From assembly GCA_023957375.1 (NCBI GenBank), contig JAMLHB010000001.1:898245-962244 (forward strand): 64,000 bases of DNA. Direction: 5' to 3'. The DNA comes from Flavobacteriales bacterium (GTDB lineage: Bacteria > Bacteroidota > Bacteroidia > Flavobacteriales_F > PHOS-HE28). The first letter of the stretch is position 1. Every line of letters begins with the position of its first letter. The notes under the pieces were generated by a model. The model saw only the letters and a program-made list of their open reading frames with translations, did no database searches and was not told the DNA's origin. Position numbers and translations under genes: made by a program. Below are positions 4,311-57,834 of the stretch, piece by piece.

Positions 4311-4337
4311 AATGATCCGGGACCGCGAAGATAGCTG

Positions 4338-5060: not shown

Positions 5061-5088
5061 AATTTGCAGCCCGACCAGTTGATACTGC

Positions 5089-9483: not shown

Positions 9484-11625
9484 AGCCTCCCCGAACCCGT
9501 CCTCCTTCCACAGGAAGTTGCCGTCGGAAGTGCGTACATAGCCAAAACGAGCTCCTGAGGTCACTTTCACCATGCCTTTGTCCACCGGTACAACGGAATC
9601 ATATTCCAACGGCACCAGCACTTTGCCGGAAGGGGCCAGCACGCCGGTACCCTGTGCGCCAGTGGCGACCAGCATGCCATTGGCCACGTCGCCCAAGGCG
9701 GTGTAACGGGGCTTGATCACCTCGGTGCCGGTGCTGTCGATCAATCCGAAAAGCGCCCCTGCCTCCACCCTGCCATAACCTTCATGAAGCTCCCAGGCCT
9801 GATCGTACTTGGCCTCCACCACGTTGGCAAAGCTGCGCTTGATATAACCCCATTTGTTCTTGCGTTTCACCGGGATCAATCCGCCCTCCAATACGCCAAT
9901 ATCCGCGTATTGTGGTTGGATCACCCAGTTGCCCAACGTGTCCACCATGCCCCATTTGCCACCCGAGAGCACACGGGCGAGGCCGTTGCGGAAGTCGCCC
10001 ATGTTGATGGAAAGCGCATTGCCTTCGTACCGCTGGGGGATCACCCAGGTGCCGCCAGACCCAACGTATCCGCACTTCCCCTTGTCCATCACCAAGGCTA
10101 AGCCGTCCTTGAATGGCCCCACATGGTCATGTTCAACGGCAAGCACTTCATCGCCGAACCGGTTGATAATGCCCATGTAACCGTCCCGGCGTACGCGTGA
10201 AAAGGGCATGGCCATGAACCCCTCCACCCAATCGTATTGGCAGGGCACCACCCACTCTCCCTTGTTGTCCACAACCCCGCTCCGGTTGTCCAGCACCACC
10301 ACGGCCAATCCATTGTGGAAGCGCATGGCCCCATCATAGGCAAACGGGATCACCTCCTTGCCTGCCGTATTGATGTATCCGTAACGATCTCCCTTTGAGG
10401 CAGCGGCCATGCCATGGTCGAACTCGCCCACCTCGTCAAAGGCCAGCGGCACGGTCAGCTTCCCGTTCCGGTCCACGGCTCCCTGCATGCCGTTCAGTTC
10501 CACGGTTGCCATTCCCTCGCCATAATCCATCACATCGTCATACACGATCGGGATCACGGGGCTGCCCATCTTGTTCACCGAGCCGTTGCGGCCCGACAGG
10601 CCCACTTGGGCTTGCCCATGGATGAACGGTTCGGCATAATCAAATTCCGCCTTGATCCGCTCCACGCCGCTGTTGTCGATGAAGCCCCACAAGCCGCCCT
10701 GCCTGATCGGGTAAAGCACGAGGCTGGCCACCTTGTAGTCGTTCATCAACTCGCCAATGAACGGATAGTCCGGGTGTTCCTTCAAGAAACGCGTGATATT
10801 GGCCACGGTGAGCTCGCGGGTGTAGATGTCGTACATGCTGCGCCACGCGTCGGACACATTGGGATTGCCGGGATACCTGCGGATAAAGGCCGCGTATTCC
10901 TCCGGGGTCTTGTGCGGGGTGTTCAGCTTGAGCAGCATGTCCTGGGCGTCCCGCACATGTGTATTGCTTGGATGATCAACGATGAACGCTTCGTATTCGG
11001 CGATCGCCCCCGTTGGAGTAGCCTCGCGGTAAATGGCTTCCTGTAGCCTGGTCCGCGCGCTGAAGGTCTCCTTCGCATCGGGATACTGGTGCAGGAAGGC
11101 CTCGTAAGCCACAGAGGTATTGGCCTTCTTGGCTTCCTGGAAGGCGAGTTCATCGCGCCGGTCCATGGCTTGGTCTACCAGGTTGCTGCCGGCATAGGCA
11201 TCTATGAAGCGTTGGTATGCTTCCAGGCGATCGAGGTCGCTGACCTGTTTCCAGGCAATGCCCGCGATGTGGTTCAGTTGGGAGCCGATCGCAGCGGAAT
11301 CCACGCCTAATTTGGCGGCTTTGCCGCGCCCCTTGGCATCCAAGAGCGCATAGGCCGCCATGGACCGGCGGACCGCCGCATAACTGGAATCCAATTGAAA
11401 GAACGGATTGTCCGCCCTGCCCGTGATGACGCTCAGGCCGTACCAAGCCGCCGCCGGATGCTTACCGGTTTCCTTCAACAGCAGGGTACGCGCCTTGAAG
11501 TAATCGTACTCCCCCAGTGCGGCAAAGGCTTTCTCCAAGCGGCCCGCGTAACTGCCTGCGGCACATCCGGCCAGCAGCAGCACCATCACCCATCTCCTCA
11601 TCGCTTCGCTATGCAGCTTGAACAT
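9472..11625 (-). CDS. WG-repeat (KWG) containing secreted protein
   Basis: Signal peptide; N-terminal TPR-like region; many W-G-(F/Y)-(I/V)-(D/N) repeats (GLWGFIDNSG, GKWGMVDTLG, NKWGYIKRSF, ARFGYVRTSDG). Confidence 0.8.
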   Translation of the reverse strand: MFKLHSEAMRRWVMVLLLAGCAAGSYAGRLEKAFAALGEYDYFKARTLLLKETGKHPAAAWYGLSVITGRADNPFFQLDSSYAAVRRSMAAYALLDAKGRGKAAKLGVDSAAIGSQLNHIAGIAWKQVSDLDRLEAYQRFIDAYAGSNLVDQAMDRRDELAFQEAKKANTSVAYEAFLHQYPDAKETFSARTRLQEAIYREATPTGAIAEYEAFIVDHPSNTHVRDAQDMLLKLNTPHKTPEEYAAFIRRYPGNPNVSDAWRSMYDIYTRELTVANITRFLKEHPDYPFIGELMNDYKVASLVLYPIRQGGLWGFIDNSGVERIKAEFDYAEPFIHGQAQVGLSGRNGSVNKMGSPVIPIVYDDVMDYGEGMATVELNGMQGAVDRNGKLTVPLAFDEVGEFDHGMAAASKGDRYGYINTAGKEVIPFAYDGAMRFHNGLAVVVLDNRSGVVDNKGEWVVPCQYDWVEGFMAMPFSRVRRDGYMGIINRFGDEVLAVEHDHVGPFKDGLALVMDKGKCGYVGSGGTWVIPQRYEGNALSINMGDFRNGLARVLSGGKWGMVDTLGNWVIQPQYADIGVLEGGLIPVKRKNKWGYIKRSFANVVEAKYDQAWELHEGYGRVEAGALFGLIDSTGTEVIKPRYTALGDVANGMLVATGAQGTGVLAPSGKVLVPLEYDSVVPVDKGMVKVTSGARFGYVRTSDGNFLWKEDGFGEASAD

Positions 11626-14192: not shown

Positions 14193-16853
14193 TCACCCCA
14201 CCAGCTCCTTGTTCCGGTTGGGAATATCGTCCTTGCTGAAGGTCACTTTATCCTCTTCCTCCTTCAGTTTCATCACCAAGGCAAGGGCATCCGGCACCAC
14301 GTCGCTGCACAGGGTGAGGAAACTGCCGGGTTTGGCCGTGGCGATGGCATGCCGGATTGCTTCCTCTTCCTTTTTAATGATCGTGTACTTCTTGCCGGGA
14401 TCCACTTCCTTGATGCCCTTCACCATCAAGGCGATGATCTCATCGTCGCTCTTCCCGCGCAGGTTGCGGTCCTGACGGATGATGATCTCGTCGAACATCT
14501 TCGCACTGAGCCGCCCTAGGGTGACCGTATCCTCATCCCGGCGGTCGCCCACCCCGGCGATCACACCCACCTTCGGACTGTCGGGCACCTTGGCCAGGAA
14601 GCGGCCCAGGGCCTCAAAGCCGTGCGGGTTGTGCGCATAATCCACCACCACCTGGAAGTTCTTGAACTGGAACAGGTTGAGGCGGCCGGGAGTTTGTGCA
14701 GGAGAGGGCACGAAGGTGTTCAATGCTTCGCGCAGTTCTTCCACCTTCACCCCGCGCACATATGCCGCCAGCACGGCAGGCAGGATGTTCTGGATGTTGA
14801 AAACGGCCTTGCCTCCAAAGGTGAGCGGCACATTCACGGCCTTTTCAATGCGCAGCTTCCACTCACCCTTGCTGATGGTAATAAAGCCGTTTTCATAGAT
14901 GGCCGCCAGGCCGCCCAGCTTGCAGTGCTGGCGGATCAACCGGTTGGATTCATCCAGGCTGAACAGGGCGATCTTGGCTTGGCACTGCTTGCGCATGGCC
15001 ATCACCAGTTCATCATCGGCATTGAGGATGGCGTAGCCATCGTTGCGCACGCTGCGCGGTACGATGGCCTTTACTTGGGCGAGCTCCTCCACGGTATTGA
15101 TGTCCTTCAGACCGAGATGGTCCGCTGCCACGTTCGTACAAATGCCCACGTCGCAACTCTCGAAGCCCAGGCCGCTGCGCAGCATGCCGCCGCGCGCAGT
15201 CTCCAGCACCGCCAGGTCTACCAGGGGATCCTTGAGCACGAACTGTGCGCTGATCGGCCCGGTGCAATCACCTTTCATCAGCATGCGGTTCATGATGTAC
15301 ACACCGTCCGTGCAGGTCATGCCCACCTTGTGCCCGTGGCTGCGCATGAGGTGCGCGATCAGGCGGGTGGTGGTGGTTTTTCCATTGGTGCCGGTAACGG
15401 CAATGATGGGGATGCGGCTCGGTGTTCCGGGCGGGAAGAGCATGTCCACCACGGGTTCCGCCACGTTGCGCCCCAAACCTTCCGTGGGGTCCAAATGCAT
15501 TCGGAAGCCAGGTGCGGCGTTCACTTCCAGCACGGCACCGCACTCATTGAGGGGGCGTGTGATGTCGGTGGTCATGATATCGATGCCGCAGATGTCCAGG
15601 TCGATGATGCGCGAGATGCGCTCGGCCATGAAGATGTTGTAGGAATGCACCAGCTCCGTAACGTCCGTGGCCGTGCCACCCGTGCTGAGGTTGGCGGTGG
15701 CCTTCAAATACATGGTTTCACCCGCGGGCGGAATGCTGTCCGGGGTGAGGTTGCTGCGCTGGAGCAGGTCCAGGGTGTGCTGGTCAATGTCCACTTGGGT
15801 GAGCACCTTTTCATGTCCGTAGCCGCGGCGGGGGTCTTTATTGAGCTCTTCCACCAACTGGGTGATGGTGTGCTTGCCATCGCCCACAACGCAGGCAGGG
15901 GTCCGTTTGGCCGCGGCCACGAACTTGTGGTTGATCACCAGCAGGCGATGGTCCAGCCCTTTGATCTCCTTTTCCACCACCACGCTTCGGCTGATCTCCT
16001 TGGCCAGGGCCAACGCAGCTGTCGCTTCCTCCAAGTTCTTGATGCCAATGGTGGCCCCGCGCCCGTGGTTGCCGCCAATGGGTTTGATCACGCACGGGAA
16101 CCCCACAGATTCCAATGCTGCAACGAGGCCTTCCTCCGTGCGCACCACCCGCCCTTTGGGCACCGGTATCTCATAGCTCTCCAGCAACTGCTTGGTCTCT
16201 TCCTTGTCGCAGGCGATCTCCACGCCGATGTTGCTGGTGCGGCTGGTGACCGTGGCCCGGATGCGCTTCTGGTGCACGCCATGGCCCAACTGCACCAAGC
16301 TTTGGCCGTTCAGGCGCAACCAGGGGATGCCCCGCCGGGCGGCCTCCTCCACAATGGAGCCGGTGCTGGGGCCGAGGCGCGTTTCCTCGCGCAGCTCGCG
16401 CATGCGCCGGATGTCCTCCTGAAGGTCGTACCCTTCACCGGCCACCAAGGCCTCCGCAATGCGCACCGAGGCACGTGCGGCATACAGGCCCACGGCTTCC
16501 TCAATGTAGCTGAACACCACGTTGTACACACCATGGTCACCGGTGGAGCGGGTCCGGCCGAAACCCGTGTCCATGCCGGCCAAGGTTTGGATCTCCAAGG
16601 CGATGTGCTCGATCACATGGCCCATCCAGGTGCCGCGCTGTACCCGCTCGAAAAAGCCGCCTTCGTGCTCTTCGCTGCACCGGTGTGAATACAGGGACGG
16701 AAGCAGGTCCTTCATGCGCTGGAAGAACCCCGGGATCTTGTCCGTGGGGCGCTCCTCCAGCCCCTCTATGTCCAACCGCATCACGATCAGGTGCTGCCGG
16801 TTGACAGACCAAAGATTGGGGCCGCGCATGGCCTTGAGTTCCAGGATACGCAT
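14193..16853 (-). CDS. cphA: cyanophycin synthetase
   Basis: MRILELKAMRGPNLWS N-terminus, ATP-grasp and Mur-ligase (GTNGKTTT) domains. Start trimmed to ATG at 16853. Confidence 0.9.
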   Translation of the reverse strand: MRILELKAMRGPNLWSVNRQHLIVMRLDIEGLEERPTDKIPGFFQRMKDLLPSLYSHRCSEEHEGGFFERVQRGTWMGHVIEHIALEIQTLAGMDTGFGRTRSTGDHGVYNVVFSYIEEAVGLYAARASVRIAEALVAGEGYDLQEDIRRMRELREETRLGPSTGSIVEEAARRGIPWLRLNGQSLVQLGHGVHQKRIRATVTSRTSNIGVEIACDKEETKQLLESYEIPVPKGRVVRTEEGLVAALESVGFPCVIKPIGGNHGRGATIGIKNLEEATAALALAKEISRSVVVEKEIKGLDHRLLVINHKFVAAAKRTPACVVGDGKHTITQLVEELNKDPRRGYGHEKVLTQVDIDQHTLDLLQRSNLTPDSIPPAGETMYLKATANLSTGGTATDVTELVHSYNIFMAERISRIIDLDICGIDIMTTDITRPLNECGAVLEVNAAPGFRMHLDPTEGLGRNVAEPVVDMLFPPGTPSRIPIIAVTGTNGKTTTTRLIAHLMRSHGHKVGMTCTDGVYIMNRMLMKGDCTGPISAQFVLKDPLVDLAVLETARGGMLRSGLGFESCDVGICTNVAADHLGLKDINTVEELAQVKAIVPRSVRNDGYAILNADDELVMAMRKQCQAKIALFSLDESNRLIRQHCKLGGLAAIYENGFITISKGEWKLRIEKAVNVPLTFGGKAVFNIQNILPAVLAAYVRGVKVEELREALNTFVPSPAQTPGRLNLFQFKNFQVVVDYAHNPHGFEALGRFLAKVPDSPKVGVIAGVGDRRDEDTVTLGRLSAKMFDEIIIRQDRNLRGKSDDEIIALMVKGIKEVDPGKKYTIIKKEEEAIRHAIATAKPGSFLTLCSDVVPDALALVMKLKEEEDKVTFSKDDIPNRNKELVG

Positions 16854-16942
16854 GGGGAATGGGGGTTGATCGGCGGTCAATGTATGAAGAGGACGCTGTT
16901 GAACAAATTCGGCACCTCGCCGTACCACTGGACCGGGGCCTT

Positions 16943-16950
16943 TAAGTTTG
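16943..16950 (+). promoter_or_regulatory. candidate Bacteroidota -7 box (TAAGTTTG) upstream of cphB
   Basis: Exact TAnnTTTG match 61 bp upstream of the cphB ATG in the divergent cphA/cphB intergenic region. No clear -33 TTG at canonical spacing. Confidence 0.3.
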
Positions 16951-17011
16951 CCCCGCTGCCCCGGCACAACCAATTCGGGTTGCAGCATCCGGGGGGGCCA
17001 AACACAGGCAC

Positions 17012-29517: not shown

Positions 29518-30099
29518 TCAACCGTGCATTTCCGGCTGCGTGCCATAGCGCGCCACCACTTCAGCCTCATAGGCAAGGAATTTCTTCCAACGGCTATCCA
29601 CGTCCACCCGGCCTCCGTATTGCCGGGCCAAGCCGATAAACGTGCTGTAGTGCCCTGCCTCGCTCTCCATCAATTCCCGGTAGAAGGTGCGCAGCTCTGC
29701 ATCCTCCACCGTTTCCGACAACATCTTGAAGCGCTCGCAGCTTCTCGCCTCGATCATGGCGGAAAAGAGCAGCCGGTCCACTAAGCGCTCTTCCGTACTG
29801 CCGTCCTTGCGCACGAAAGCCAGCAACTCGTTCACGTAGTTGTCCTTCTTCTCCGGCTCCAATGCCCACCCACGGGCCTCAATGCGTTCCACCACCATGC
29901 CGAAGTGCGCCATTTCCTCCTGTGCGATCTGCAACAACTCCCTCACCAAGCTGGTCAAGCCGGGATTGCGCACGATGATAGCCAAGGCATTGCTGGCTGC
30001 TTTGTGCTCGCACCACGCATGATCGATCAGTAGGGTGCGGAGGTCTTGTGTGGCGAAGGCCGCCCAGCGGGGGTCGGTGGGGAGTTGGAGGTGAAGCAT
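29518..30099 (-). CDS. miaE: tRNA-(ms2io6A37)-hydroxylase
   Basis: Di-iron ferritin-like motifs EExAH (QEEMAHF) and ESEAGHY. Start trimmed to ATG 30099. Confidence 0.8.
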   Translation of the reverse strand: MLHLQLPTDPRWAAFATQDLRTLLIDHAWCEHKAASNALAIIVRNPGLTSLVRELLQIAQEEMAHFGMVVERIEARGWALEPEKKDNYVNELLAFVRKDGSTEERLVDRLLFSAMIEARSCERFKMLSETVEDAELRTFYRELMESEAGHYSTFIGLARQYGGRVDVDSRWKKFLAYEAEVVARYGTQPEMHG

Positions 30100-30391
30100 G
30101 GTCAATGGCAAAGGAAGGCAACCCCAGGCTGGCAGGCAACACCTACCGCTTTCCGGCTTAGTTGCACGGATGTAATCACCTCCAATGAAACAGGTGGGGG
30201 TAGCACGGCTCCTGCCACCAGCCGATGGAAAGGCATTTACCAACCGGATGGGAACGGCCTTGCTTGACAAAGCACTTTCAAAGATCATAATATTGCATTC
30301 ATCGAATCCCGGGAAACATTCGTCGATAGGATTTGACCATTCGTTGAAAACCAAAGCCTCCCCAAGGAACTCGTTCAAAAACAACCGGAAG

Positions 30392-33300
30392 ATGAAGACA
30401 ACAATACCCCCCATTGTGCATCCAGGCTGCTCTGCCAAGGCTGTGCTTTGGTCGTTAGCCTTGCTGTTGGGCACGCCACAACTGGCACGATCACAGAGCT
30501 ATTGTACCGCTGGTGCCAATACGCCTGGCGCCGCAGGCATCACCGAGGTGGTGTTCAATGAGATCAGCAACGCATCGGTGGCTACCCCGGCCTATTCGAA
30601 TTTCACCGCACAAATCACCAACGTGGTGGTGGGCAATTCCTACCAGCTATCGGTGAAGGTGGTGGCCACCGGCACCTTATTTGGGAGCCCGACCAATACG
30701 GCCATGGCCTGGATCGACTGGAACCAGAACGGTACGTTCGAGGCCTCGGAAAGCTATGCCTTGGGCACCCTGAACGCCGGTCTTTTCGGCAGTGAAGCAG
30801 AGGGTTATACCAGTGCTTCGCCATTGAACATCACCGTACCCGGCACCGCATTGGGCGGCAACACCCGCATGCGGGTCCGGACACGGCGCGGCAGCGCGCC
30901 CTCCGCTTGCGGCAACATCAACCACAGCGAAGCGGAAGACTATACTGTGAACGTGATCGTGCCCGTCTATTGCAGCGGTACACCGGCACCGGGCCTGACC
31001 ACTACCTCCACGGCCATTCCCTGCCCGGGCATTCCGTTCACCTTGGGCATGCAGAACAATTCCGCGGACCTGGGCCTCACTTACCAATGGCAAAGCAGCA
31101 CTACCGGCTTGGCCGGCTCCTATGCAAACAACGGCTTGGGCACAGCTCCTACGCAAGTTACCAGTGCAACCGTGCCCACTTGGTACCGCGTGGTGGTCAC
31201 GTGTTCCGGGCAGGACGGGATCAGTACGCCGGTAACCGTCTCACCAAGCCCGTTTGCCGCCGCCTGTTATTGTGCCGTCACTGCCAACAGCAATGATGCC
31301 ACCGGGATCACCAGGGTACAATTGGGCACCATCGACAACAGCACGAGCTCGGCCCCGGCCTATAGCGATTTCAGCAACTTGACCACCGTGATGAACGCCG
31401 GTGACAGCTATCCCTTGACCGTAACGGCAAATGCCCCAGGGTTCACCCTGGCGTACATCACCGCCTGGATCGATTGGGACCACAGCGGGGTGTTCGATGC
31501 CTCAGAATCTTACGACTTGGGGCTCGTGTTGTTGGGTGAAGCCATTACCAGCAGCTCGCCGTTGGGCATTACCGTGCCACAGAACGCGGCTGGCGGCCCC
31601 ACCATCATGCGGATCAGAGCGACCAATTCGACGGCCCCCAGTGCGTGCGGCAATAACGACAACAGCGAGGCGGAAGACTATATGCTCAACGTGATCCCGC
31701 CACACAACACGTGCAGTACCGCATTCCCGGTGCAATGCGGCCAGAGCTATCCGGGCAAAACCACGGGCGTAGCGCCCAGCATGCCCGGCAGCACATGCCC
31801 CTTCAACGGGCCGGCCAGCAGCGGCGGGCAGAACTGGTGGCTGTATACCGCCACCGGCGATAATGCGGTCACCTTCAGCACCTGCGGCAATGCCGACTTC
31901 GACACCCGCATCTCGGTGTTCAGTGGTGCAGATTGCGCCAGCCTGGCCTGCACGGCCATGAACGACGACAGCCCAGGCTGCGCCACCGGCAGTAGCGAGG
32001 TGACCATCAACACCACCACGGGAACCACCTACTGGATCGCGGTGCACGGTGCCGGTGCGCAAGAGGGATCGTACACATTGTCCGTATCCTGCGGTGCCGT
32101 TTGCCCACCCCAAGCCAATGACGTTTGTGCCAGTGCCACCTCCATAGCCAATCACCTGCGCGACGGCAGCAACACCCCGGCCACCTACACCAACGCCTGC
32201 GCCACCGTGGACGGCCCCACATCGGCCAGCGGAGCCATGCCCGTGAGCGGCGTGTGGTTCAACTTAAGCACCGGCGACTTCAGCCATGCCTTGCTCTCCG
32301 TTGTCGACCATGGATCCGATGCCCAATACAGCGCCACCACCTTGAATTTCGCCTTGTTCAGTGGTGCCTGCAATAACTTGGGGGCCGAAGATGAGGTGGC
32401 CGTCACCACTGATGCGGATGGGTTCAACATAGTCGACCTTGCGCCCAATTCCAACTACCTGCTGCTGGTGTACAACAACGGCAGCTCCGGCGTGGCGGGC
32501 ACCTTCGGCCTGATGCTGGAGCACGCCGCACACAACGACGCCTCCATCGCCGCCCTGCTCTCCCCCGCCCCGGGCTTGCTCTGCGGCTCCACCATGGCCC
32601 CGGAGGTCACCCTGCTGAACAACGGTGACAACGACCTCACCAGCGTGCAGATCAACTACGGACTGAGCGGCGGACCGGTGCACACCTACAACTGGACGGG
32701 CAACCTGGCCTACGGCCAATCGGTGAACGTCACCCTGCCCACCGTGCCCACCGTCTCCGGAACCGGCCAAACCCTGGCCGTGTCCACCAGCATGCCCAAC
32801 GGAGTGGCCGACGACATGCCCGCCAACGACAGCCAAAGCATCCTCGTCGACGTGAGCGGAGAACCCGTAGTGCTCAAGATCAAAACGGACAATGACGCCA
32901 GCTTCTTCTACTGGGAGATCTACGACCAGGCTTTCAGCATAGTGGCCACCGGAGGGTACTACCCCTTGGCCAACAACCTGTACAGCGAGAACCTCTGCCT
33001 GTCCACCGACAACGGCAACTGCTACAGCCTGGCCCTGTACGACGACAATGGCGACGGCCTGTGCTGCAACAACGGCAACGGATTCTGGGAGCTGCGCACC
33101 ACCTCCGGGCGATTGCTGCTGCGCGACCTCTTCGACGGCAGCATCGACGGCTACTCCTCACCCTCCGGGTCCACGCAGACGCCCAGCTACGGCAGCGGCC
33201 ACAACTTCTGCCTGCCCGCAGGGCCCTCGCGCATCATGGCCAACGAGTGCGGCGTGTTTACCAACGGCATGTACGACAAGGTCTACAGCAACAAGGTGAC

Positions 33301-34147
33301 CGGTGCCACCCAGTACCAGTTCGAGTTCAGCAACCCCGACGCCGGCTACATGCGCCGCATCGCACGCCCGCACAACTACGTGGTGTTCTACGAGATGGTC
33401 TCCAGCCCATTAGTGCCCGGCGTAGTGTACTTCACCCGCGTGCGCACCAATGAGGCAGGCCCCTTGGCCAGCGCACACTGGGGATCGGGCTGCGACCTCG
33501 GCTTGGGCATCGCCCAGGTGGTGCAGTGCACCCAGCTGATCCAGGCACCCGCCTATGGCCACTCCTGCAACGAGACCCGCAGCTTCAACGCACCCTACAA
33601 CTACCTCTATGCCAGACCCGTGACCGGCGCCACCACCTACACCTTCAAGGTCACCGGTGACGACGGCAACTACAACAGCGGCATCGAGTTCGTGCGCAGC
33701 ACGTACATCCTGGCACTGGGCTGGGGTACTGACGAGGCACCGGCGCTCCAGGACCAGAGCACCTACCAGGTGCAGGTGCGGGTGACGGTGAACGGCATTG
33801 AGGGCACCTACTGCGGCAACGTGTGCAATGTCACCATCGACAACAGCCCGAATTTGGGGATACGCTTGACGCAGACCGAAGGGCAGCCTGAGTTCAACCT
33901 CTGGCCGAACCCCAACAACGGGCAGCACCTGAACGTGGCCCTGAGCGGCTTGGACAGCGGGCTCACCACCGCCGATGTGCTCCTGGTGGACCTCACCGGC
34001 CGCATGGTCATTGGCACCCAACTACCTGTTGCAGGCGGTGCGGTCAACAGCTTGATCGAGCTGGGCAATGCCGCCAACGGCACCTACCTGCTGCAGATCA
34101 TCGTCGGTGGCAAGACATGGACCAAGCACGTGGTGGTCAGCAAATAG
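30392..34147 (+). CDS. large T9SS-secreted protein: two GEVED-like domains, central region, conserved approx 330-aa pre-tail module, T9SS type A sorting domain
   Basis: Signal peptide MKTTIPPIVHPGCSAKAVLWSLALLLG. GEVED-like signature twice (AWIDWNQNG...CGN...SEAEDYTVNV). C-terminal NLWPNPNNGQHLNV...TYLLQII...K Por-tail. Confidence 0.8.
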   Translation: MKTTIPPIVHPGCSAKAVLWSLALLLGTPQLARSQSYCTAGANTPGAAGITEVVFNEISNASVATPAYSNFTAQITNVVVGNSYQLSVKVVATGTLFGSPTNTAMAWIDWNQNGTFEASESYALGTLNAGLFGSEAEGYTSASPLNITVPGTALGGNTRMRVRTRRGSAPSACGNINHSEAEDYTVNVIVPVYCSGTPAPGLTTTSTAIPCPGIPFTLGMQNNSADLGLTYQWQSSTTGLAGSYANNGLGTAPTQVTSATVPTWYRVVVTCSGQDGISTPVTVSPSPFAAACYCAVTANSNDATGITRVQLGTIDNSTSSAPAYSDFSNLTTVMNAGDSYPLTVTANAPGFTLAYITAWIDWDHSGVFDASESYDLGLVLLGEAITSSSPLGITVPQNAAGGPTIMRIRATNSTAPSACGNNDNSEAEDYMLNVIPPHNTCSTAFPVQCGQSYPGKTTGVAPSMPGSTCPFNGPASSGGQNWWLYTATGDNAVTFSTCGNADFDTRISVFSGADCASLACTAMNDDSPGCATGSSEVTINTTTGTTYWIAVHGAGAQEGSYTLSVSCGAVCPPQANDVCASATSIANHLRDGSNTPATYTNACATVDGPTSASGAMPVSGVWFNLSTGDFSHALLSVVDHGSDAQYSATTLNFALFSGACNNLGAEDEVAVTTDADGFNIVDLAPNSNYLLLVYNNGSSGVAGTFGLMLEHAAHNDASIAALLSPAPGLLCGSTMAPEVTLLNNGDNDLTSVQINYGLSGGPVHTYNWTGNLAYGQSVNVTLPTVPTVSGTGQTLAVSTSMPNGVADDMPANDSQSILVDVSGEPVVLKIKTDNDASFFYWEIYDQAFSIVATGGYYPLANNLYSENLCLSTDNGNCYSLALYDDNGDGLCCNNGNGFWELRTTSGRLLLRDLFDGSIDGYSSPSGSTQTPSYGSGHNFCLPAGPSRIMANECGVFTNGMYDKVYSNKVTGATQYQFEFSNPDAGYMRRIARPHNYVVFYEMVSSPLVPGVVYFTRVRTNEAGPLASAHWGSGCDLGLGIAQVVQCTQLIQAPAYGHSCNETRSFNAPYNYLYARPVTGATTYTFKVTGDDGNYNSGIEFVRSTYILALGWGTDEAPALQDQSTYQVQVRVTVNGIEGTYCGNVCNVTIDNSPNLGIRLTQTEGQPEFNLWPNPNNGQHLNVALSGLDSGLTTADVLLVDLTGRMVIGTQLPVAGGAVNSLIELGNAANGTYLLQIIVGGKTWTKHVVVSK

Positions 34148-34460
34148 TTGCCCTACTCCACTAAGCCACAGGGCCGCCCGGCGGGCGGCCCTGTGTGCTG
34201 GGGCGATGTACCGAGTTGTCAATGGGGATGGCGGGGAGATTCTATCACGGCCGAAGGCCCCATTCAAGAAATAGGGTCGTTCGGCCATTGGGCCCGGAAG
34301 AGCGGAATTGCAAGACTCCCAAGCTCAATCCACTACCGAACCTAATTGCCAACTCACCCCGTCCCATGGCCGCAATAGGGAAAAAAACAGGAACAATTGC
34401 CTTTTCATTTCAGCTTACCTACTTTGCGCCGATGAAATCCAACATCTAAAACCCACCCAG

Positions 34461-37400
34461 ATGAGACCACGCAAGACCCTTCCCCCATGGACCAAGCCAA
34501 TTTTTGCGGCTGTCTTCCTCCTTTTCGGTTTCATGGCACAGGCGCAGCAATGCCCCAACATGGCGGCCAACGTAGGAGACCCCTGCGATGACAACAGGCC
34601 ATACACCACCAACGACGTGGTGATCATGAATAGCGGCGGTTGCATGTGCCTTGGGGCCGATATGATACCCACCTCCGTGGATATCCGTCTGGTGCCCAGT
34701 GCCCAACCGAACAAGCTGGACTTGCAGATCATGCTGCATTCGACGGAAGTATTCGGGGGGGTATTGAGCGCCTTGACGGTTACCATCCGGTATGATGCCT
34801 CAGCCGGTGCGGCCTTGGGCGGCGGCGTTGAATTCTGCCCGGCCTGGCCCCTTGACCCGGAAGCCGTGGTCACCAACAGTGGCATGGCCTACCGCACGTA
34901 CAACGGGTTCGGGTTGACGCGACTGGACACAGATCCGGGCCCATTTGATGATGAAGGATGCGGGGCCACACTCCCTGTGGAAACATGGTTCACCGTATCG
35001 ACAATTCCCTACTCGGCGCCGAACTGCGTGACATTCACGTTGGGCAATGATGCCTTCACAGGAGCCAATAACAGAGATTTCTATCTATCAATGAACGGCT
35101 GGGATCGCACAGGCAATGTTATCGGCGGCCCTGTGCAAGTAGGCCCCTGTAGCGTGGATTGTGCCGGTGTGCCGGGCGGTACAGCCTATCTGGACAACTG
35201 CAACCAGTGCGTTGGTGGTACCACGGGGAATGTGCCTTGCACCCAGGACTGCAACGGCGACTGGGGTGGAACGGCTTCCCTTGACAATTGCGGCACCTGC
35301 GCAGGCGGAAATACCGGCGTAACGCCTTGCACCCAGGACTGCAACGGCGACTGGGGCGGAACGGCTTCCGTTGATAATTGCGGTACCTGCGCAGGCGGAA
35401 ACACCGGCGTAACACCTTGCACCCAGGACTGCAACGGCGACTGGGGCGGAACCGCTTCCGTTGATAATTGCGGTACCTGCGCAGGCGGAAACACCGGCGT
35501 GGTACCCTGTGCACAGGACTGCAACGGCGACTGGGGCGGAACGGCTTCCGTTGACAATTGCGGCACCTGCGCGGGCGGAAACACCGGCGTAACGCCTTGC
35601 ACCCAGGACTGCAACGGCGACTGGGGCGGAACGGCTTCCGTTGATAATTGCGGTACCTGCGCAGGCGGAAACACCGGCGTAACGCCTTGCACCCAGGACT
35701 GCAACGGCGACTGGGGCGGAACGGCTTCCGTTGACAATTGCGGCACCTGCGCAGGCGGAAACACCGGCGTAACACCTTGCACCCAGGACTGCAACGGCGA
35801 CTGGGGCGGAACGGCTTCCGTTGACAATTGCGGCACCTGCGCAGGCGGAAACACCGGCGTAACGCCTTGCACCCAGGACTGCAACGGTGATTGGGGCGGA
35901 ACCGCCTACATGGACAACTGCGCAACCTGCGTGGGTGGCAACACCGGGCTGGAACCCTGCGTGAGCGACTGCAACGGAGTGCCCGGCGGATCCGCTTTCG
36001 TGGACAACTGCGGCACCTGCGTGGGCGGCGACACCGGACTGGAAGCCTGCGTGCAGGACTGCAACGGCGACTGGGGCGGAACGGCTTCCCTTGACAACTG
36101 CGGCACCTGCACCGGTGGCAACACCGGCGTAACACCTTGCACCCAGGACTGCAACGGTGATTGGGGCGGAACCGCTTACATGGACAACTGCGCAACCTGC
36201 GTGGGTGGCAACACCGGGCTGGAACCCTGCGTGAGCGACTGCAACGGAGTGCCCGGCGGATCCGCTTTCGTGGACAACTGCGGCACCTGCGTGGGCGGCG
36301 ACACCGGACTGGAAGCCTGCGTGCAGGACTGCAACGGCGACTGGGGCGGAACGGCTTCCCTTGACAACTGCGGCACCTGCACCGGTGGCAACACCGGCGT
36401 AACACCTTGCACCCAGGACTGCAACGGTGATTGGGGCGGAACCGCTTACATGGACAACTGCGCAACCTGCGTGGGTGGCAACACCGGGCTGGAACCCTGC
36501 GTGAGCGACTGCAACGGAGTGCCCGGCGGATCCGCTTTCGTGGACAACTGCGGCACCTGCGTGGGCGGCGACACCGGACTGGAAGCCTGCGTGCAGGACT
36601 GCAACGGCGACTGGGGCGGAACGGCTTCCCTTGACAACTGCGGCACCTGCACCGGTGGCAACACCGGCGTAACACCTTGCACCCAGGACTGCAACGGTGA
36701 TTGGGGCGGAACCGCTTACATGGACAACTGCGCAACCTGCGTGGGTGGCAACACCGGGCTGGAACCCTGCGTGAGCGACTGCAACGGAGTGCCCGGCGGA
36801 TCCGCTTTCGTGGACAACTGCGGCACCTGCGTGGGCGGCGACACCGGACTGGAAGCCTGCGTGCAGGACTGCAACGGCGACTGGGGCGGAACGGCTTCCC
36901 TTGACAACTGCGGCACCTGCACCGGTGGCAACACCGGCGTAACACCTTGCACCCAGGACTGCAACGGTGATTGGGGCGGAACCGCTTACATGGACAACTG
37001 CGCAACCTGCGTGGGTGGCAACACCGGGCTGGAACCCTGCGTGAGCGACTGCAACGGAGTGCCCGGCGGATCCGCTTTCGTGGACAACTGCGGCACCTGC
37101 GTGGGCGGCGACACCGGACTGGAAGCCTGCGTGCAGGACTGCAACGGCGACTGGGGCGGAACGGCTTCCCTTGACAACTGCGGCACCTGCACCGGTGGCA
37201 ACACCGGCGTAACACCTTGCACCCAGGACTGCAACGGTGATTGGGGCGGAACCGCTTACATGGACAACTGCGCAACCTGCGTGGGTGGCAACACCGGGCT
37301 GGAACCCTGCGTGAGCGACTGCAACGGAGTGCCCGGCGGATCCGCTTTCGTGGACAACTGCGGCACCTGCGTGGGCGGCGACACCGGACTGGAAGCCTGC

Positions 37401-38861
37401 GTGCAGGACTGCAACGGCGACTGGGGCGGAACGGCTTCCCTTGACAACTGCGGCACCTGCACCGGTGGCAACACCGGCGTAACACCTTGCACCCAGGACT
37501 GCAACGGTGATTGGGGCGGAACCGCCTACATGGACAACTGCGCAACCTGCGTGGGTGGCAACACCGGGCTGGAACCCTGCTCGGGGCCTTGCACCGGCAA
37601 CGAAGTAGTGGTCGTGATCCATGCTGATGGCCAAGCCGACCAGCTGAGCTGGGTGATCACCAACGACGGCGGTACCACCATCGCATCGGGCGCTCTTTCT
37701 GCAGGTCAAAACAACAGTACGGTCAGCACCACGGCCTGCTTGGGAACCACGAATGACCCGGCCTGTTACGGCTTCCGCCTGATGGACAGCTTTGGCGACG
37801 GCATCTCCAACGGTGGGTGGGAACTGAAAACCACCAGTGGCAGGCTCTTGTTGCAGGATGCCTTCGCCTCCGGTGCAGTTTCCCCCGCATCGCCATCCGC
37901 AACCGCCGCGTATGGCAGCAGCCACAGCTTCTGCCTGCCTGAAGGACCGGCCAGGATCAAGCCCACCTCGTGCGGCATCTTCACCTATGGCTATTATGGA
38001 CAGGTGTTTGCCACCAAGGTGGTCGGCGCCACCCAGTACCAGTTCGAGTTCAGCGATCCCGATGCGGGTTATGTGCGCCGGATCGCACGTCCGCACGAAT
38101 GGGTGGGCTTCCATGAAATGACGACCAAGCCGTTGGTACCTGGTGTAGTGTACTTTGCCCGCGTGCGCACCGACCGCGATGGCCCCTTGGCCAGCGCACA
38201 CTTCGGCGCGGGCTGCGAACTGGGCATGGGCATTGCGCAGACCGTGCTTTGCACCCAGCTGATCGAGGCACCCAGTTACGGCCACTCCTGCAACGAGACA
38301 CGCATCTTCAACCACCCGTACAGCTTTATCTATGCAAAGCCGGTGGGTGCAGCGACCTCGTACACGTTCTGGATCACCGGTGATGGAGGGCTTTACGACC
38401 ATGAGTTCACCCGCAGCACCTACATCCTCCACCTCGGTTGGAGTGCAGCGGAGGCTCCCCCCTTGGTAAACGGAAGCACGTACCAAGTGCGTGTGAAAGT
38501 GGCCGCCAGCGGCGTTGAAGGGACTTATTGTGGCAACACCTGCGACATCACCATCAACAACAGCCCGGTGTTTGGCGAAATGGCGGTGCCGACCATGGGG
38601 AATGCCACCTTGTGGCCCAACCCTGCGCGTGACGGACAGGTGAACCTGAGCATTGACGGCATTCAGGACCTTGACCAACAAATCACCGTGGACGTGCAGG
38701 ATATCTACGGCAAACAGGTGTTTGCCCAGGAATTCGGCAACAGCGGTGATCGCTTCAGCACCATCCTGCAACTTCCCAAGGACATCGCCACCGGCGTGTA
38801 CATGGTGAACATCACCGTGAACGGTGAGCACAGCGTGCAGCGGCTTAGCATCATCAAGTAA
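34461..38861 (+). CDS. large T9SS-secreted protein with about 27 tandem 30-aa Cys-rich modules, conserved pre-tail module, T9SS type A sorting domain
   Basis: Signal peptide (IFAAVFLLFGFMAQAQ). Repeats are C.QDCNGDWGGTA..DNCG.C.GGNTG..P. C-terminal TLWPNPARDGQVNLSI...GVYMVNITVNG Por-tail. Confidence 0.8.
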   Translation: MRPRKTLPPWTKPIFAAVFLLFGFMAQAQQCPNMAANVGDPCDDNRPYTTNDVVIMNSGGCMCLGADMIPTSVDIRLVPSAQPNKLDLQIMLHSTEVFGGVLSALTVTIRYDASAGAALGGGVEFCPAWPLDPEAVVTNSGMAYRTYNGFGLTRLDTDPGPFDDEGCGATLPVETWFTVSTIPYSAPNCVTFTLGNDAFTGANNRDFYLSMNGWDRTGNVIGGPVQVGPCSVDCAGVPGGTAYLDNCNQCVGGTTGNVPCTQDCNGDWGGTASLDNCGTCAGGNTGVTPCTQDCNGDWGGTASVDNCGTCAGGNTGVTPCTQDCNGDWGGTASVDNCGTCAGGNTGVVPCAQDCNGDWGGTASVDNCGTCAGGNTGVTPCTQDCNGDWGGTASVDNCGTCAGGNTGVTPCTQDCNGDWGGTASVDNCGTCAGGNTGVTPCTQDCNGDWGGTASVDNCGTCAGGNTGVTPCTQDCNGDWGGTAYMDNCATCVGGNTGLEPCVSDCNGVPGGSAFVDNCGTCVGGDTGLEACVQDCNGDWGGTASLDNCGTCTGGNTGVTPCTQDCNGDWGGTAYMDNCATCVGGNTGLEPCVSDCNGVPGGSAFVDNCGTCVGGDTGLEACVQDCNGDWGGTASLDNCGTCTGGNTGVTPCTQDCNGDWGGTAYMDNCATCVGGNTGLEPCVSDCNGVPGGSAFVDNCGTCVGGDTGLEACVQDCNGDWGGTASLDNCGTCTGGNTGVTPCTQDCNGDWGGTAYMDNCATCVGGNTGLEPCVSDCNGVPGGSAFVDNCGTCVGGDTGLEACVQDCNGDWGGTASLDNCGTCTGGNTGVTPCTQDCNGDWGGTAYMDNCATCVGGNTGLEPCVSDCNGVPGGSAFVDNCGTCVGGDTGLEACVQDCNGDWGGTASLDNCGTCTGGNTGVTPCTQDCNGDWGGTAYMDNCATCVGGNTGLEPCVSDCNGVPGGSAFVDNCGTCVGGDTGLEACVQDCNGDWGGTASLDNCGTCTGGNTGVTPCTQDCNGDWGGTAYMDNCATCVGGNTGLEPCSGPCTGNEVVVVIHADGQADQLSWVITNDGGTTIASGALSAGQNNSTVSTTACLGTTNDPACYGFRLMDSFGDGISNGGWELKTTSGRLLLQDAFASGAVSPASPSATAAYGSSHSFCLPEGPARIKPTSCGIFTYGYYGQVFATKVVGATQYQFEFSDPDAGYVRRIARPHEWVGFHEMTTKPLVPGVVYFARVRTDRDGPLASAHFGAGCELGMGIAQTVLCTQLIEAPSYGHSCNETRIFNHPYSFIYAKPVGAATSYTFWITGDGGLYDHEFTRSTYILHLGWSAAEAPPLVNGSTYQVRVKVAASGVEGTYCGNTCDITINNSPVFGEMAVPTMGNATLWPNPARDGQVNLSIDGIQDLDQQITVDVQDIYGKQVFAQEFGNSGDRFSTILQLPKDIATGVYMVNITVNGEHSVQRLSIIK
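35149..37590 (+). repeat. tandem repeat array, 90-bp unit x approx 27; includes six near-identical 270-bp higher-order copies (approx 35868..37487)
   Basis: Identical sequence blocks recur at 270-bp spacing (e.g. GCAACGGTGATTGGGGCGGAACCGC at 35881, 36151, 36421, 36691, 36961, 37231, 37501). Six identical ORFs appear on each strand in the ORF track. Confidence 0.95.
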
Positions 38862-38881
38862 CCAACGACCCATACTAAACG

Positions 38882-38918
38882 AAGGGGCCGCCTCAAAAGG
38901 GCGGCCCCTTTGTGTTGT
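38882..38918 (+). terminator. rho-independent terminator after repeat protein gene
   Basis: AAGGGGCCGCC-TCAAAA-GGGCGGCCCCTT hairpin followed by a TGTGTTGT U-rich tract. Confidence 0.55.
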
Positions 38919-39709
38919 ATCCAACCGCTCTGCGAGGCGATGTTGCTGTGTGCCGGGGAATCCGGTGCACCAGTACTGGATCCATGTACTGCATGGGTTC
39001 GGTCCAAGGTTAGGCGCTGCTGCAAACCCTTTACAGGCACTGGCCGTGTGTTATGCGATGGTTGTGAAGGCTGCTTCGGATCTACCCTATGCGTCCCCAC
39101 GCAGAGGTACCAGGTCCGCCTTATACCATCTTGAATTGCAAATCAGGCCAAAAGATGCGCGGCAAATTCTTCGCAGGACGATCCGGGGGACCTGTGGCGT
39201 AGCCATAGCTACGGCGCTGGGCACCCGGAGAAGTAATGCGGAAAAGGAGCAAGCAGATTGGACTAATTTGTGGTTCAAGCTGGTATTACAACCATCATCA
39301 TGCATAGGCCAGTTCAACAGCGCTGGAGAGCTACCGGCCGATGCACACCCATCGACCGAGATGAACGAGGAAAGCCCCTGCAGACGCGGCCGTCACCACG
39401 GCACGGGCACTGCAAGCCCTTCCCGGATGAGCGCAGCCCCGTGGCCACCAGAGGCACCGTGCACTACATGCAGGTCCGTTCGCCGAGCGCCCGCCCAGAC
39501 CTGATGCGCAATGGGCCACATCCCTCTGCCGTGAACAACCATCTCCATCCGTGCTTCCCCAACCCGGCGACATCATCGGCGGTCACTTCACCCACCCGAA
39601 GAACAAGCTGAGCGATCAAAACGGCCCCAACGACACATACCGCAAAAGCTTCATGGTTGAACTTGCCGCTTATCCGGGAACCAGCCCGTCCTAATACCGA
39701 CACCAAGGA

Positions 39710-41329
39710 CTATCGCATCAACTGCACCGTACGTGTCCACAACGGTACGCCTTCATGGCTGCCCCGCAGCATATAGCTGGCATCTGCCAAACCCGCAAGG
39801 TGAACGGAAACCTCAACTGCCCCGATCGGCCATTTCACCGTGCGAACGACCTGCCCCTGCATGTCGAACAGCTCAACGACCTGTTCCACCCGGCTAGGCA
39901 CTTCGGTACGGACCTGCACTGATGAACTGGCGGGTTGGGGAAAAACGGATGGTCCAAACCCTTCCGGGCCGGATAGCCCAGTAACGACCACTTGAAGAGG
40001 CTCTGAATAGAGCGTGCAAGGGTCACCAAATGACGCAAGCACTTGGTACATTCCGTCGATCACGGGCTCAAAGCTCATTCCCGTTGCTCCGGTTATGGCC
40101 ACACCACCCAGGTACCATTGCCAAGAATCCGCAGCGGTGCTTGTCAGTGTTGCTCCGTCAAAGTCGATCTCTGGATCGGGCATGGGGCAGGCATCCACGA
40201 CCTTCTTGACCAGGTTGTGCTCAACATCGGTCACGTACAACTCACCCGCTGCATCCTGCCCAAATCCTGAAAATCCATATACATCGGTTTGCAAGAGCGT
40301 GTCCACATCGAAGTTTTCGCCGAAGGATAAAAAGTCGCCGTTGCAATAATCGGTGAAGATGTATTTGCCAAACAGGTGCGGGAAGCGCGTTCCCCGGTAC
40401 ACATACCCTCCGATGACCGAGCACCATCCCTGCTGGCCGTGATCAAATGCCGCCACGGGTTCCACAAAAGGGCCCAACGCGGCGCAACCGCTCTGGTTGA
40501 CACCTGGCGTGGGGATATAGGCTTCCCGGCAGCGCCAACCGAAATTGGGGCCGTTGTTGTTCCCGGCTGGCCAAAAATCAACCTCCTCCCACTGGTTTTG
40601 GCCCACGTCACCGATCCAAAGGTCACCGGCAAGGGCGTCGAAGCTGAACCGCCACGGGTTTCTCAAGCCGCTGGCCCACACCTCGGGCAGCGCCCCAGCG
40701 GTAGCTACAAAGGGATTGTCCGGTGGAATGGCATAGGTGTCGGTGTGCTGGGAAACATCGATCCTGATCATCTTGCCCAAGGCCGCGCCCAAGTTTTGCG
40801 CGTTGCCTTGCGGATCGTTCTGATCGCCACCATCCCCAAAACCGCAATAGAGGTAACCGTCGGGGCCGAATTGCAGGCATCCCCCATTGTGGTTGGTGAA
40901 TGGTTGTGGCACAGTGTATAGGACCACTTCGCTGGATGCATCAGCCACGTTGGGGTCGGCACTGACTTGAAAGCGCGAGATGCGACTGACACCAGGTCCG
41001 CTGCCGTGGGTGTAGTAGACGTAGAAGTAGCCGTTGTCCGCATAACCAGGGTCGAACGCAAGGCCGAGCAGGCCCTGTTCATTGGAGGCGCTCTGCACCA
41101 GCGGGGTGATGTTCAAGAACGGTACCGGCAGCACTTGCATGCTATCCGCAACGATCCGGATGGTTCCTTGCCGCAACACAACGAACAGCCGTTCATCGCC
41201 GGCATGGGTGGCAAATACCGGCTTGCTCAGCCCCGTCGCCCACGTGTGCAGAGCGATGCGGACGGGATTCTGTTGCGCCGGAACCAACAACGGCAATGAA
41301 AGCAGGAGTATGAGGATCGCCTTTTTCAT
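39710..41329 (-). CDS. PQQ-dependent sugar (aldose/sorbosone) dehydrogenase with T9SS type A C-terminal sorting domain
   Basis: Signal peptide. Beta-propeller motifs (HNGGCLQFGPDGYLY, RNPWRFSFD) typical of YliI/sGDH. C-terminal Por-tail (VFPQPASSSVQV...ASYMLRG). Confidence 0.85.
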   Translation of the reverse strand: MKKAILILLLSLPLLVPAQQNPVRIALHTWATGLSKPVFATHAGDERLFVVLRQGTIRIVADSMQVLPVPFLNITPLVQSASNEQGLLGLAFDPGYADNGYFYVYYTHGSGPGVSRISRFQVSADPNVADASSEVVLYTVPQPFTNHNGGCLQFGPDGYLYCGFGDGGDQNDPQGNAQNLGAALGKMIRIDVSQHTDTYAIPPDNPFVATAGALPEVWASGLRNPWRFSFDALAGDLWIGDVGQNQWEEVDFWPAGNNNGPNFGWRCREAYIPTPGVNQSGCAALGPFVEPVAAFDHGQQGWCSVIGGYVYRGTRFPHLFGKYIFTDYCNGDFLSFGENFDVDTLLQTDVYGFSGFGQDAAGELYVTDVEHNLVKKVVDACPMPDPEIDFDGATLTSTAADSWQWYLGGVAITGATGMSFEPVIDGMYQVLASFGDPCTLYSEPLQVVVTGLSGPEGFGPSVFPQPASSSVQVRTEVPSRVEQVVELFDMQGQVVRTVKWPIGAVEVSVHLAGLADASYMLRGSHEGVPLWTRTVQLMR

Positions 41330-57663: not shown

Positions 57664-57834
57664 GGGCCACATCCGCCTGCCAGGCCTAGCGGAAGCTCCC
57701 TTCCTTGCCGGGCTGGGCGGCCATCCCGGCGTAGCGGAGCTTCAGCTTTTCAACCGGCGCTGAAAACTTTATCCACCCCGGGGTGCTGTTCCCCTGCACC
57801 AAAGCTGGCAGGATTGACGATATTTGTGGGTACA

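Follow-up and report, generated by a model that had tools for sequence, protein, structure and literature searches.

What is the role of a protein block of ~335 aa that two neighbouring T9SS cargo genes share directly ahead of a type A T9SS tail, when BLASTP finds no other similarity between the rest of the two proteins? T9SS cargo is commonly pictured as consisting of a passenger and a CTD, and the block, called here the cassette, lies between the two. In the window, i.e. the whole stretch of 64,000 nucleotides that was analysed, it occurs in two copies only, in genes A and B (Table 1). A sequence-only reading had presented them as two adjacent giant T9SS cargo genes, both ending in a type A Por-tail. 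They are indeed adjacent plus-strand ORFs with type A tails, but with 1,251 and 1,466 aa they are large rather than giant, and the tails differ in subtype although both exceed the TIGR04183 cut-off of 23 (33.2 bits for A, 25.2 bits for B; NCBIfam). Por_Secre_tail (PF18962; Pfam), which has a cut-off of 27, gave 26.6 bits for A, narrowly short of it, and 27.7 bits for B.

Table 1. Features of genes A and B (positions in the window).
Feature	Positions	Strand	Description
Gene A	30392..34147	+	T9SS cargo, 1,251 aa; ORF; signal peptide, 2 x GEVED, unannotated middle region, cassette, type A CTD
A-D1	32852..33235	+	aa 821-948; beta-sandwich, DxxGDG motif, 'GLCC' subtype
A-D2	33236..33526	+	aa 949-1045; FN3-like, with YQFEFSNPDAGYMRRI
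A-D3	33527..33850	+	aa 1046-1153; FN3-like, homologous to D2, with YGHSCNETR
A linker	33851..33895	+	disordered by prediction; CTD presumably removed here
A type A CTD	33896..34144	+	TIGR04183; minority 'A-type' subtype
Gene B	34461..38861	+	T9SS cargo, 1,466 aa; ORF; signal peptide, N-terminal region, 26 Cys-rich repeats, cassette, type A CTD
B stalk	35234..37580	+	26 x 30-aa Cys-rich repeats (TRF)
B-D1	37590..37958	+	aa 1044-1166; 'CxGN-start' subtype
B-D2	37959..38249	+	aa 1167-1263
B-D3	38250..38567	+	aa 1264-1369
B linker	38568..38606	+	
B type A CTD	38607..38858	+	TIGR04183; majority 'B-type' subtype

The upstream parts of A and B are entirely different, as had been claimed. GEVED domains had been placed at the N-terminus of A, and two stretches of the protein match PF20009 (E = 4e-33, 114.5 bits against a gathering score of 24.4; Pfam). 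The Cys-rich repeats noticed in B were resolved by TRF into a period of 90 (25.9 copies) and a higher-order 270-nt period (8.7 copies, 96% matches). Signal peptides were read off the translations, MKTTIPPIVHPGCSAKAVLWSLALLLGTPQLARS followed by QS in A and MRPRKTLPPWTKPIFAAVFLLFGFMAQA followed by QQ in B, and the start Met of A is the same in its near-identical orthologue P0058. Exact-sequence look-ups found neither protein on record.

The shared block was seen in one significant BLASTP alignment (A821-1251 / B1044-1466, 49% identity over 434 aa, E = 2e-125), which is contiguous and lies above the 30% limit that had been set for abandoning the idea of a common module. Without the tail, identity rises to 56% over 345 aa (tblastn) or 58% (MAFFT). 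The proposed module of ~330 aa is thus borne out, with limits (32852-33850 in A, 37590-38567 in B) within ~10 nt of those first suggested and with all the motif strings quoted for it present in the alignment. Similarity is uneven along the alignment, with 41% identity in D1, 67% in D2, 65-67% in D2/D3, 7% in the linker and 24% in the CTD. With only 24% identity, the two tails belong to different CTD subtypes.

The cassette had been regarded as a single domain, a view that has to be given up. It comprises three domains, of which two are mutually related, and the domain types also occur in arrays elsewhere. In the AF2 model (mean pLDDT 87.7), three all-beta domains are followed by a disordered linker and then by the CTD: D3 strands reach residue 329, residues 334-344 have a pLDDT below 50 and CTD strands begin at residue 347. 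D2 and D3 are homologous (hhalign probability 98.4%, E = 5e-15) and, as judged from sequence, arose by duplication of one Cys-bearing FN3-like domain within the cassette. D1 is, according to the model, a previously uncatalogued beta-sandwich with a DxxGDG motif. Its residues 96-128 had a block pLDDT of 90-97 when D2 was present, as compared with 37-65 for D1 alone. Since this part of D1 is confident only with D2, the two domains appear to share a packed interface rather than to follow each other as beads on a string, and the models imply a packed, rigid D1/D2 arrangement.

Searches of Pfam, NCBIfam and PDB gave nothing significant for the cassette, in agreement with the earlier view of a module without known relatives. 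The PDB sequences were searched with the single sequence and with profiles, and D1 had no significant match in Pfam or NCBIfam. The D1 profile also found nothing significant among PDB sequences, its best hit (E 0.11) being a Gram-positive pilin that serves as a lead only. Foldseek of the whole model against PDB and BFVD retrieved only generic multi-Ig/FN3 arrays with a probability of 1.0 and TM <=0.31, a low value that arises because several domains are aligned together. For D1 alone, Foldseek against PDB returned nothing significant (best E 0.016, TM at most 0.43). The candidates PLAT, TerD, MG and Kgp-K3 were rejected as D1 relatives since their fold matches fall short of significance (E = 0.15 for the Kgp K3 adhesin domain), and the known families P-domain, PLAT/C2, CBM and pilin Ig gave D1 no significant sequence or fold match.

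In the same way as FN3/Ig-like domains (PF00041), D2 and D3 are predicted beta-sandwiches of ~100 aa, and the Foldseek matches of the whole model are to FN3 arrays; they differ from fn3 by conserved Cys residues and the signature motifs YQFEFSDPDAGFxRRI and YGHSCNETR. No cassette member reached the fn3 gathering score (best E 0.071, in 2 of 19 members), and D3-type arrays gave faint fn3 signals that amount to a summed weak score only. No description of the motif or of a pre-CTD module was found in the literature. With the cassette, two or three domain families come to light that Pfam, NCBIfam and PDB do not contain. An enzymatic role is not supported, given the all-beta Ig-like fold, the absence of any catalytic-family match and the binding-type payloads.

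The same module was found in other T9SS cargo, where the sequence-only reading had proposed to look for it. An exhaustive profile search yielded 5,454 matches and revealed that the impression of a very rare family, left by the 39 matches of a word-indexed homology search, was an artefact of sensitivity; a word-indexed search with the D1 profile added nothing useful. The family has hundreds of members. Full cassettes were seen only in high-GC uncultured Flavobacteriales MAGs, and all relatives are affiliated with Flavobacteriales. A genome carries up to ~10 cassette loci, often in same-strand tandem. The cassette marks a lineage-specific, much-expanded T9SS cargo family of high-GC uncultured Flavobacteriales.

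Its position is fixed. Exactly D1-D2-D3-CTD was present in 60 of the 147 best cluster representatives, in which the distance from the end of D3 to the C-terminus has a median of 99 aa and the cassette is preceded by unrelated N-terminal payloads of 0-2,860 aa. The pre-CTD position also holds in 78 genomic loci, and across the family D3 is separated from the CTD by a disordered linker of 10-24 aa. Stand-alone genes, made of signal peptide, cassette and CTD with no head, are kept in several MAGs with housekeeping genes as neighbours. No conserved partner gene was found adjoining cassette genes in the loci examined. Other cargo carries long arrays of D1-type and of D2/D3-type domains. Mean identity within the family reaches 55-57% in D2 and D3, 49% in the CTD, 43% in D1 and 19% in the linker, and the polar residues R168, R169, R196, R198, H237, S238, D163 and E158 are invariant or nearly so.

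Module shuffling had been suggested from the layout of A and B, and it reaches further than proposed. In relatives, the cassette is joined to at least 10 unrelated payload types, mostly adhesin-like and non-enzymatic (GEVED, Cys-rich repeats, beta-propellers, CARDB, HYR, LTD). Downstream, A is 50-69% identical to its positional orthologues, present in at least four other MAGs, through the end of D3, as against 23-27% in the CTD. The breakpoint of the swap is the linker / D3 boundary, and the tails of the family are B-type in 60 of 73 cases and A-type in 5 of 73. Shuffling on both sides, with varying heads and swapped CTDs, is strongly supported by these comparisons. Since CTD subtypes are exchanged at the D3/linker boundary with the cassette unchanged, cassette and CTD do not form a single co-evolving unit.

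In Gram-positive bacteria, variable heads share SLH or cell-wall-binding repeats as anchors. The cassette resembles these modules in being one conserved sorting-end module common to many unrelated surface proteins of a genome, but it has no sequence or fold relation to them, belongs to a Gram-negative organism with a T9SS and has a putative anchoring role only. As in mosaic fibrillar adhesins (CshA/GEVED, PMC10952558), variable N-terminal binding-type domains (GEVED in A), a repeat stalk (26 units in B) and a C-terminal sorting/anchoring signal are combined in proteins that evolve by domain shuffling. Unlike in these adhesins, the conserved part is a heterotypic unit, D1-D2-D3, fixed both in composition and in position, and the T9SS takes the place of LPXTG/sortase.

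The closest parallel in architecture is offered by the gingipains RgpB and Kgp and by PPAD, in which the type A CTD is also preceded by a short, disordered linker and this directly by a beta-sandwich (PMC4804311). RgpB has the order Ig-like domain, 9-residue disordered linker, CTD; the Ig-like domain, which is not lost on maturation, was proposed to be a spacer or insulator influencing CTD processing, and linker length controls A-LPS attachment (PMC4804311). However, the cassette has three domains instead of one, is reused in ~10 paralogues per genome with unrelated heads and also headless, and is better conserved than the CTD. PDB sequence and profile searches detected no homology to the gingipain IgSF domain. 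The 'long CTD' of Prevotella was discarded as a parallel, being merely a longer CTD with no added module. The window contains three further CTD-bearing ORFs and none of the T9SS machinery genes SprA/Sov, PorK/L/M/N and PorU/V. Together with the affiliation of all relatives to Flavobacteriales, these ORFs hint indirectly that the organism may encode a T9SS.

What the cassette does was considered in the light of its demonstrated anatomy, family, position, shuffling and absence of known domain matches. Chances are about even that it is a rigid, cell-proximal pedestal kept on the mature protein. The protein would reach the periplasm through the Sec system, after which the CTD by itself would drive T9SS passage before being cut off within the linker; as a result of this removal, the mature protein would end in the cassette, on the side nearest to the cell. 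It may then act as a rigid pedestal or insulator which provides the same structural context beside the processing/attachment site for all members and holds variable, mostly adhesin-like heads off the cell, new members arising through heads grafted upstream and CTD subtypes exchanged downstream. In this scheme, it is inferred that the CTD is cleaved, that the protein is located at the surface and that the cassette serves as a pedestal. The three-domain all-beta model with packed D1/D2, the fixed position, the varied non-enzymatic payloads and the resemblance of the D1-type and D2/D3-type arrays to stalk domains speak for a pedestal, as do the D2/D3 duplication, the restriction of Foldseek matches to FN3/Ig arrays, the precedent of RgpB and the ability of a type A CTD to secure secretion by itself. 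On the contrary, it is not obvious that a passive spacer would call for such conservation, D2/D3 being above the CTD, several polar residues are near-invariant, and the retention of stand-alone genes suggests an activity that belongs to the cassette itself. These points would rather suit a specific binding or anchoring module, which would either tie the mature protein non-covalently to a surface polymer of the cell itself or to a partner in the outer membrane, or act as a lectin for a family-wide external ligand. A common surface-anchoring or processing domain had been suggested in the sequence-only reading. This reading draws on the invariant Arg, His and Asp of D2/D3, on the conservation of headless genes, on the persistence of the cassette whichever CTD subtype follows and on the star-like pattern of long-diverged paralogues, all ~56% identical, which indicates strong constraint. 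It nevertheless appears less likely than the pedestal, as sequence, profile and fold searches gave no resemblance to known carbohydrate-binding or anchoring domains, cassette genes have no conserved partner gene alongside and the domain types also build long homotypic arrays typical of stalks.

Alternatively, the cassette could be part of an extended secretion/processing signal on which T9SS recognition, folding or PorU-type cleavage and attachment would depend in this lineage. It always sits directly beside the CTD with a linker of constrained length, RgpB processing is influenced by adjacent Ig-domain motifs and by linker length (PMC4804311), and type B CTDs require sequence outside the conserved domain for efficient secretion (PMC12618676). 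Yet a type A CTD alone is sufficient for secretion, including that of heterologous proteins (PMC12618676), other type A cargo in the window lacks the cassette (57814-61683 and probably 39710-41329), the tails are swapped beside an unchanged cassette, and cassette and CTD identities correlate only moderately (Spearman 0.46), all of which makes an extended signal improbable. It is far less probable still that A and B resemble each other only because neighbouring genes were recently duplicated in tandem or underwent gene conversion, with no functional meaning. The two genes are adjacent on the same strand and tandem pairs exist at no fewer than 12 loci, but A and B are only 72% identical at the DNA level over 664 nt, other genomes contain relatives of each that are equally close or closer, and in most cases the nearest relative is not the tandem neighbour. 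With the positional orthologues of A and the size of the family, these data led to the rejection of concerted evolution or recent duplication.

The present weight of the finding is moderate, because the clade is known from MAGs only and function is deduced. Even so, a three-domain unit of 335 aa between passenger and CTD is the best-conserved part of ~10 paralogues per genome and is kept while heads and export tags are both exchanged. It is conceivable, albeit unlikely, that the cassette is a dedicated surface-retention/sorting module of a Flavobacteriales clade, binding a conserved envelope component and fixing cargo location whatever the CTD subtype. If true, it would represent a Gram-negative, T9SS-linked counterpart of SLH-type anchors, and D1 would found a new domain superfamily with arrays also outside the clade. 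Orthologues that agree in passenger and cassette while their type A CTDs are of different subtypes constitute a natural experiment on what CTD subtypes mean, anchoring or release. The cassette raises the question of whether a standard pedestal or anchor beside the attachment site is a general requirement of T9SS surface proteins.

The two neighbouring T9SS cargo proteins of the window, A and B, gave a single significant match in BLASTP (A821-1251/B1044-1466; 49% identity over 434 aa, E = 2e-125), with no similarity upstream of the shared block. This is the arrangement that a sequence-only reading had described, namely a common module ahead of the tail behind differing upstream parts, and its coordinates and motif strings proved correct within ~10 nt. 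Without the tail, identity is 56% over 345 aa (58% by MAFFT). The window contains only two copies of this cassette, a ~335-aa D1-D2-D3 unit that precedes a linker and a type A C-terminal domain (CTD). The tails are Por_Secre_tail in both proteins by Pfam, TIGR04183 exceeds its NCBIfam cut-off in both, and A and B test as type A CTD cargo.

Features of the window (window positions) and parts of the AlphaFold2 model of A (model residues), the latter with family mean and A versus B identity
Feature	Position	Strand	Details
Adenylate/guanylate cyclase domain fused to 10-bladed beta-propeller	2145-5222	-	ORF
Cassette-less T9SS cargo	5089-9483	+	1,464 aa; type B tail (CHU_C/TIGR04131)
WG-repeat protein	9472-11625	-	ORF
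Cyanophycin synthetase	14193-16988	-	ORF
Gene A	30392-34147	+	ORF; 1,251 aa counted from the Met that yields a signal peptide
Gene B	34461-38861	+	ORF; 1,466 aa; adjoins gene A
Probable cassette-less type A cargo	39710-41329	-	glucose/sorbosone dehydrogenase (GSDH); type A tail slightly below cut-off
Cassette-less type A cargo	57814-61683	+	1,289 aa; type A tail, no other recognised domains
D1	model residues ~1-128		43%; 41%
D2	model residues 129-225		57%; 67%
D3	model residues 226-333		55%; 65%
Linker	model residues 334-344		disordered, pLDDT < 50; 19%; 7%
CTD	C-terminal to linker		seven strands; 49%; 24%

The N-terminal heads also agreed with their earlier description, since Pfam found two GEVED domains at the N-terminus of A and the Cys-rich repeats of B amount to 26 units of 30 aa. 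These repeats (35234-37580) have a higher-order period of 270 nt (8.7 copies, 96% matches), which points to a recent tandem amplification of three-repeat blocks. Long ORFs antisense to B (35088-38924 and 35119-37545, both on the minus strand) were rejected as artefacts of repeats and GC. In A, the 360-aa middle region (31775-32851, residues ~461-820) is conserved in A orthologues (60-64%) and has no Pfam match; its last part, common to the library relatives P0001 and P0002, has by eye a CARDB-like appearance. Signal-peptide cleavage, also placed by eye (positions 30392-30500 and 34461-34560), would fall between LARS and QSYC in A and between MAQA and QQCP in B, leaving an N-terminal Gln in both. 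Such a Gln is a reported pattern in secreted proteins of Bacteroidota, in which it forms pyroglutamate.

AlphaFold2, run on a 33-sequence alignment, gave a confident all-beta model for the block and tail of A (mean pLDDT 87.7, pTM 0.68). D1 is a beta-sandwich with a DxxGDG motif and is related to neither D2 nor D3, a pair that hhalign identifies as homologues (probability 98.4%, E = 5e-15). Residues 96-128 of D1 had block pLDDT values of 37-65 when D1 was modelled alone, versus 90-97 in the full model. As this segment is confident only in the full model, it would pack on D2, and the cassette is thus predicted to be a rigid unit. Conservation along cassette and tail is uneven by region. Conserved Cys positions lie at both ends of D2 and of D3 and in a D1 hairpin, a pattern that agrees with an extracellular, disulfide-bonded protein. 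Moreover, the family alignment A1/A2 contains two D1 subtypes: that of A (32852-33235) carries G[LI]CC as an internal insertion and lacks the N-terminal Cys, while that of B (37590-37958) has an N-terminal CxGN and lacks the CC, which suggests alternative disulfide patterns.

The module had been read as a domain of unknown function, and database searches yielded no known family for it. The cassette region of A and B has zero Pfam or NCBIfam matches, and Pfam over 19 family members gave nothing significant (top match fn3, E = 0.07, in 2/19). PDB sequences gave nothing significant by single sequence or by profiles, a pilin match (E = 0.11) being no exception. Foldseek with the whole model returned only generic FN3/Ig arrays at TM <= 0.31 (S-layer, contactin, fibronectin, complement MG domains and phage FN3 proteins), and D1 alone had no significant match (best E = 0.016). 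By these results, D2 and D3 are probably FN3-like sandwiches that have diverged, and D1 is a sandwich without recognisable relative.

A word-indexed search found only 39 relatives. An exhaustive profile search of 1.84 billion cluster representatives gave 5,454 matches at E <= 1e-3, 1,739 at <= 1e-10 and 288 at <= 1e-30. Sub-domain mapping of the best 147 representatives revealed the exact D1-D2-D3-CTD order in 60, with a median of 99 aa from the end of D3 to the C-terminus, a D3-to-CTD gap of 10-24 aa and N-terminal extensions of 0-2,860 aa (median near 990). The same 147 include arrays of 4-11 D1-type copies and of 4-15 D2/D3-type copies, many of the latter with a terminal CTD. Outside the window, P0130, P0115 and P0147 carry 5-11 D1-like units (TTDxYPxExSW...CYxFTIxDSYGDG), one with PT-rich linkers and another next to LRRs and an S8 subtilase domain; judged from these arrays, D1 probably belongs to a wider uncatalogued superfamily.

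Looked for in other T9SS cargo, as the sequence-only reading had proposed, the module was found before their CTDs, behind many unrelated heads: DUF5122/Rax2 and Kelch propellers, GBD_T9SS_assoc, HYR, Gly_rich_2 with P-domain, CARDB with SprB repeats, LTD with fn3, three GEVED domains, and some with nothing recognisable. A stand-alone form of ~450 aa (signal peptide, cassette and CTD) occurs in several MAGs. A motif-seeded scan of one genome per GTDB species confirmed 111 cassette copies; the 78 retained loci come from 27 MAGs, up to 10 in one MAG, all assigned to Flavobacteriales or Bacteroidetes except where, in a few cases, a doubtful genus name is given, with a GC of 56-67% versus 61% in the window. 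The top identity to A was only ~60%, so the genome of the window is not itself a GTDB representative; P0058 in the protein library is a near-identical orthologue of A.

Among 73 complete tails, 60 are of the majority 'B-type', five of the minority 'A-type' and eight other, and tail type does not track cassette relatedness. The positional orthologues of A in four MAGs (L001, L004, L006 and L011, beside rpmB-cinA-miaE) share 50-69% identity with it through N-terminus, middle region, D1, D2 and D3; beyond D3 (33851-34144), the linker has 0-31% and the CTD 23-27%. This drop shows that the CTD of A has been replaced and that the exchange began where D3 meets the linker. A like pattern is seen in the neighbouring genes L022/L021 (cassettes 89% identical, CTDs only 25%) and in L042/L044 (CTD identity 23% versus 83% for the cassette). 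The proposed module shuffling thus holds on both sides, with heads varying upstream and CTD subtype downstream. At locus L057, miaE directly adjoins GSDH and prfC, which in the window are the flanking genes of B, without cargo genes between; the slot that A and B fill among conserved housekeeping genes (29518-41329) is therefore variable.

A recent duplication without functional meaning could account for the similarity of A and B, yet it is largely refuted and very improbable: their cassettes (58% identity) resemble those of other genomes as closely as they do one another, the 79 distinct cassettes averaging 56% (minimum 37%). Tandem pairs occur in at least 12 of 78 loci, with both genes on one strand in every case, and most of them do not unite nearest relatives. 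At the DNA level, the cassettes of A and B are 72% identical over 664 nt. By these comparisons, the cassettes are old paralogue lineages under strong constraint and did not arise by gene conversion.

The module had been suspected of serving surface anchoring or processing. A type A CTD by itself is enough for the T9SS to secrete a foreign protein (PMC12618676) and the window encodes cassette-less type A cargo, from which we infer that export as such does not need the cassette. Such cargo and the CTD swaps speak against an extended secretion or processing signal, an improbable reading. The main rival, a specific anchoring or binding module, is rather doubtful; it draws on the conservation of D2 and D3 exceeding that of the CTD, on several invariant polar residues and on the stand-alone genes kept in several MAGs. 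The preferred reading, with about even chances, is a rigid pedestal. The cassette would remain on the mature protein as its C-terminal, cell-proximal part, where it may give every family member an equal context beside the processing and attachment site and present the variable, mostly binding-type heads.

Among the closest known systems is the gingipain IgSF-linker-CTD unit, with which the cassette shares its way of working but not homology. RgpB has an Ig-like domain, then a disordered linker of 9 residues, then the CTD; a role as spacer or insulator has been proposed for the Ig domain, and A-LPS attachment is governed by the length of the linker (PMC4804311). Mosaic fibrillar adhesins, for which domain shuffling has been described (PMC10952558), and FN3-type stalk domains are also close, although the cassette fails the fn3 sequence test. 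No description of the cassette was found in the literature searched. Its function is deduced here for a host clade represented by MAGs only. The cassette defines new domain families and, as type A CTDs differ in outcome, anchoring or release (PMC12618676), the orthologues with exchanged CTDs constitute a natural CTD-swap experiment.
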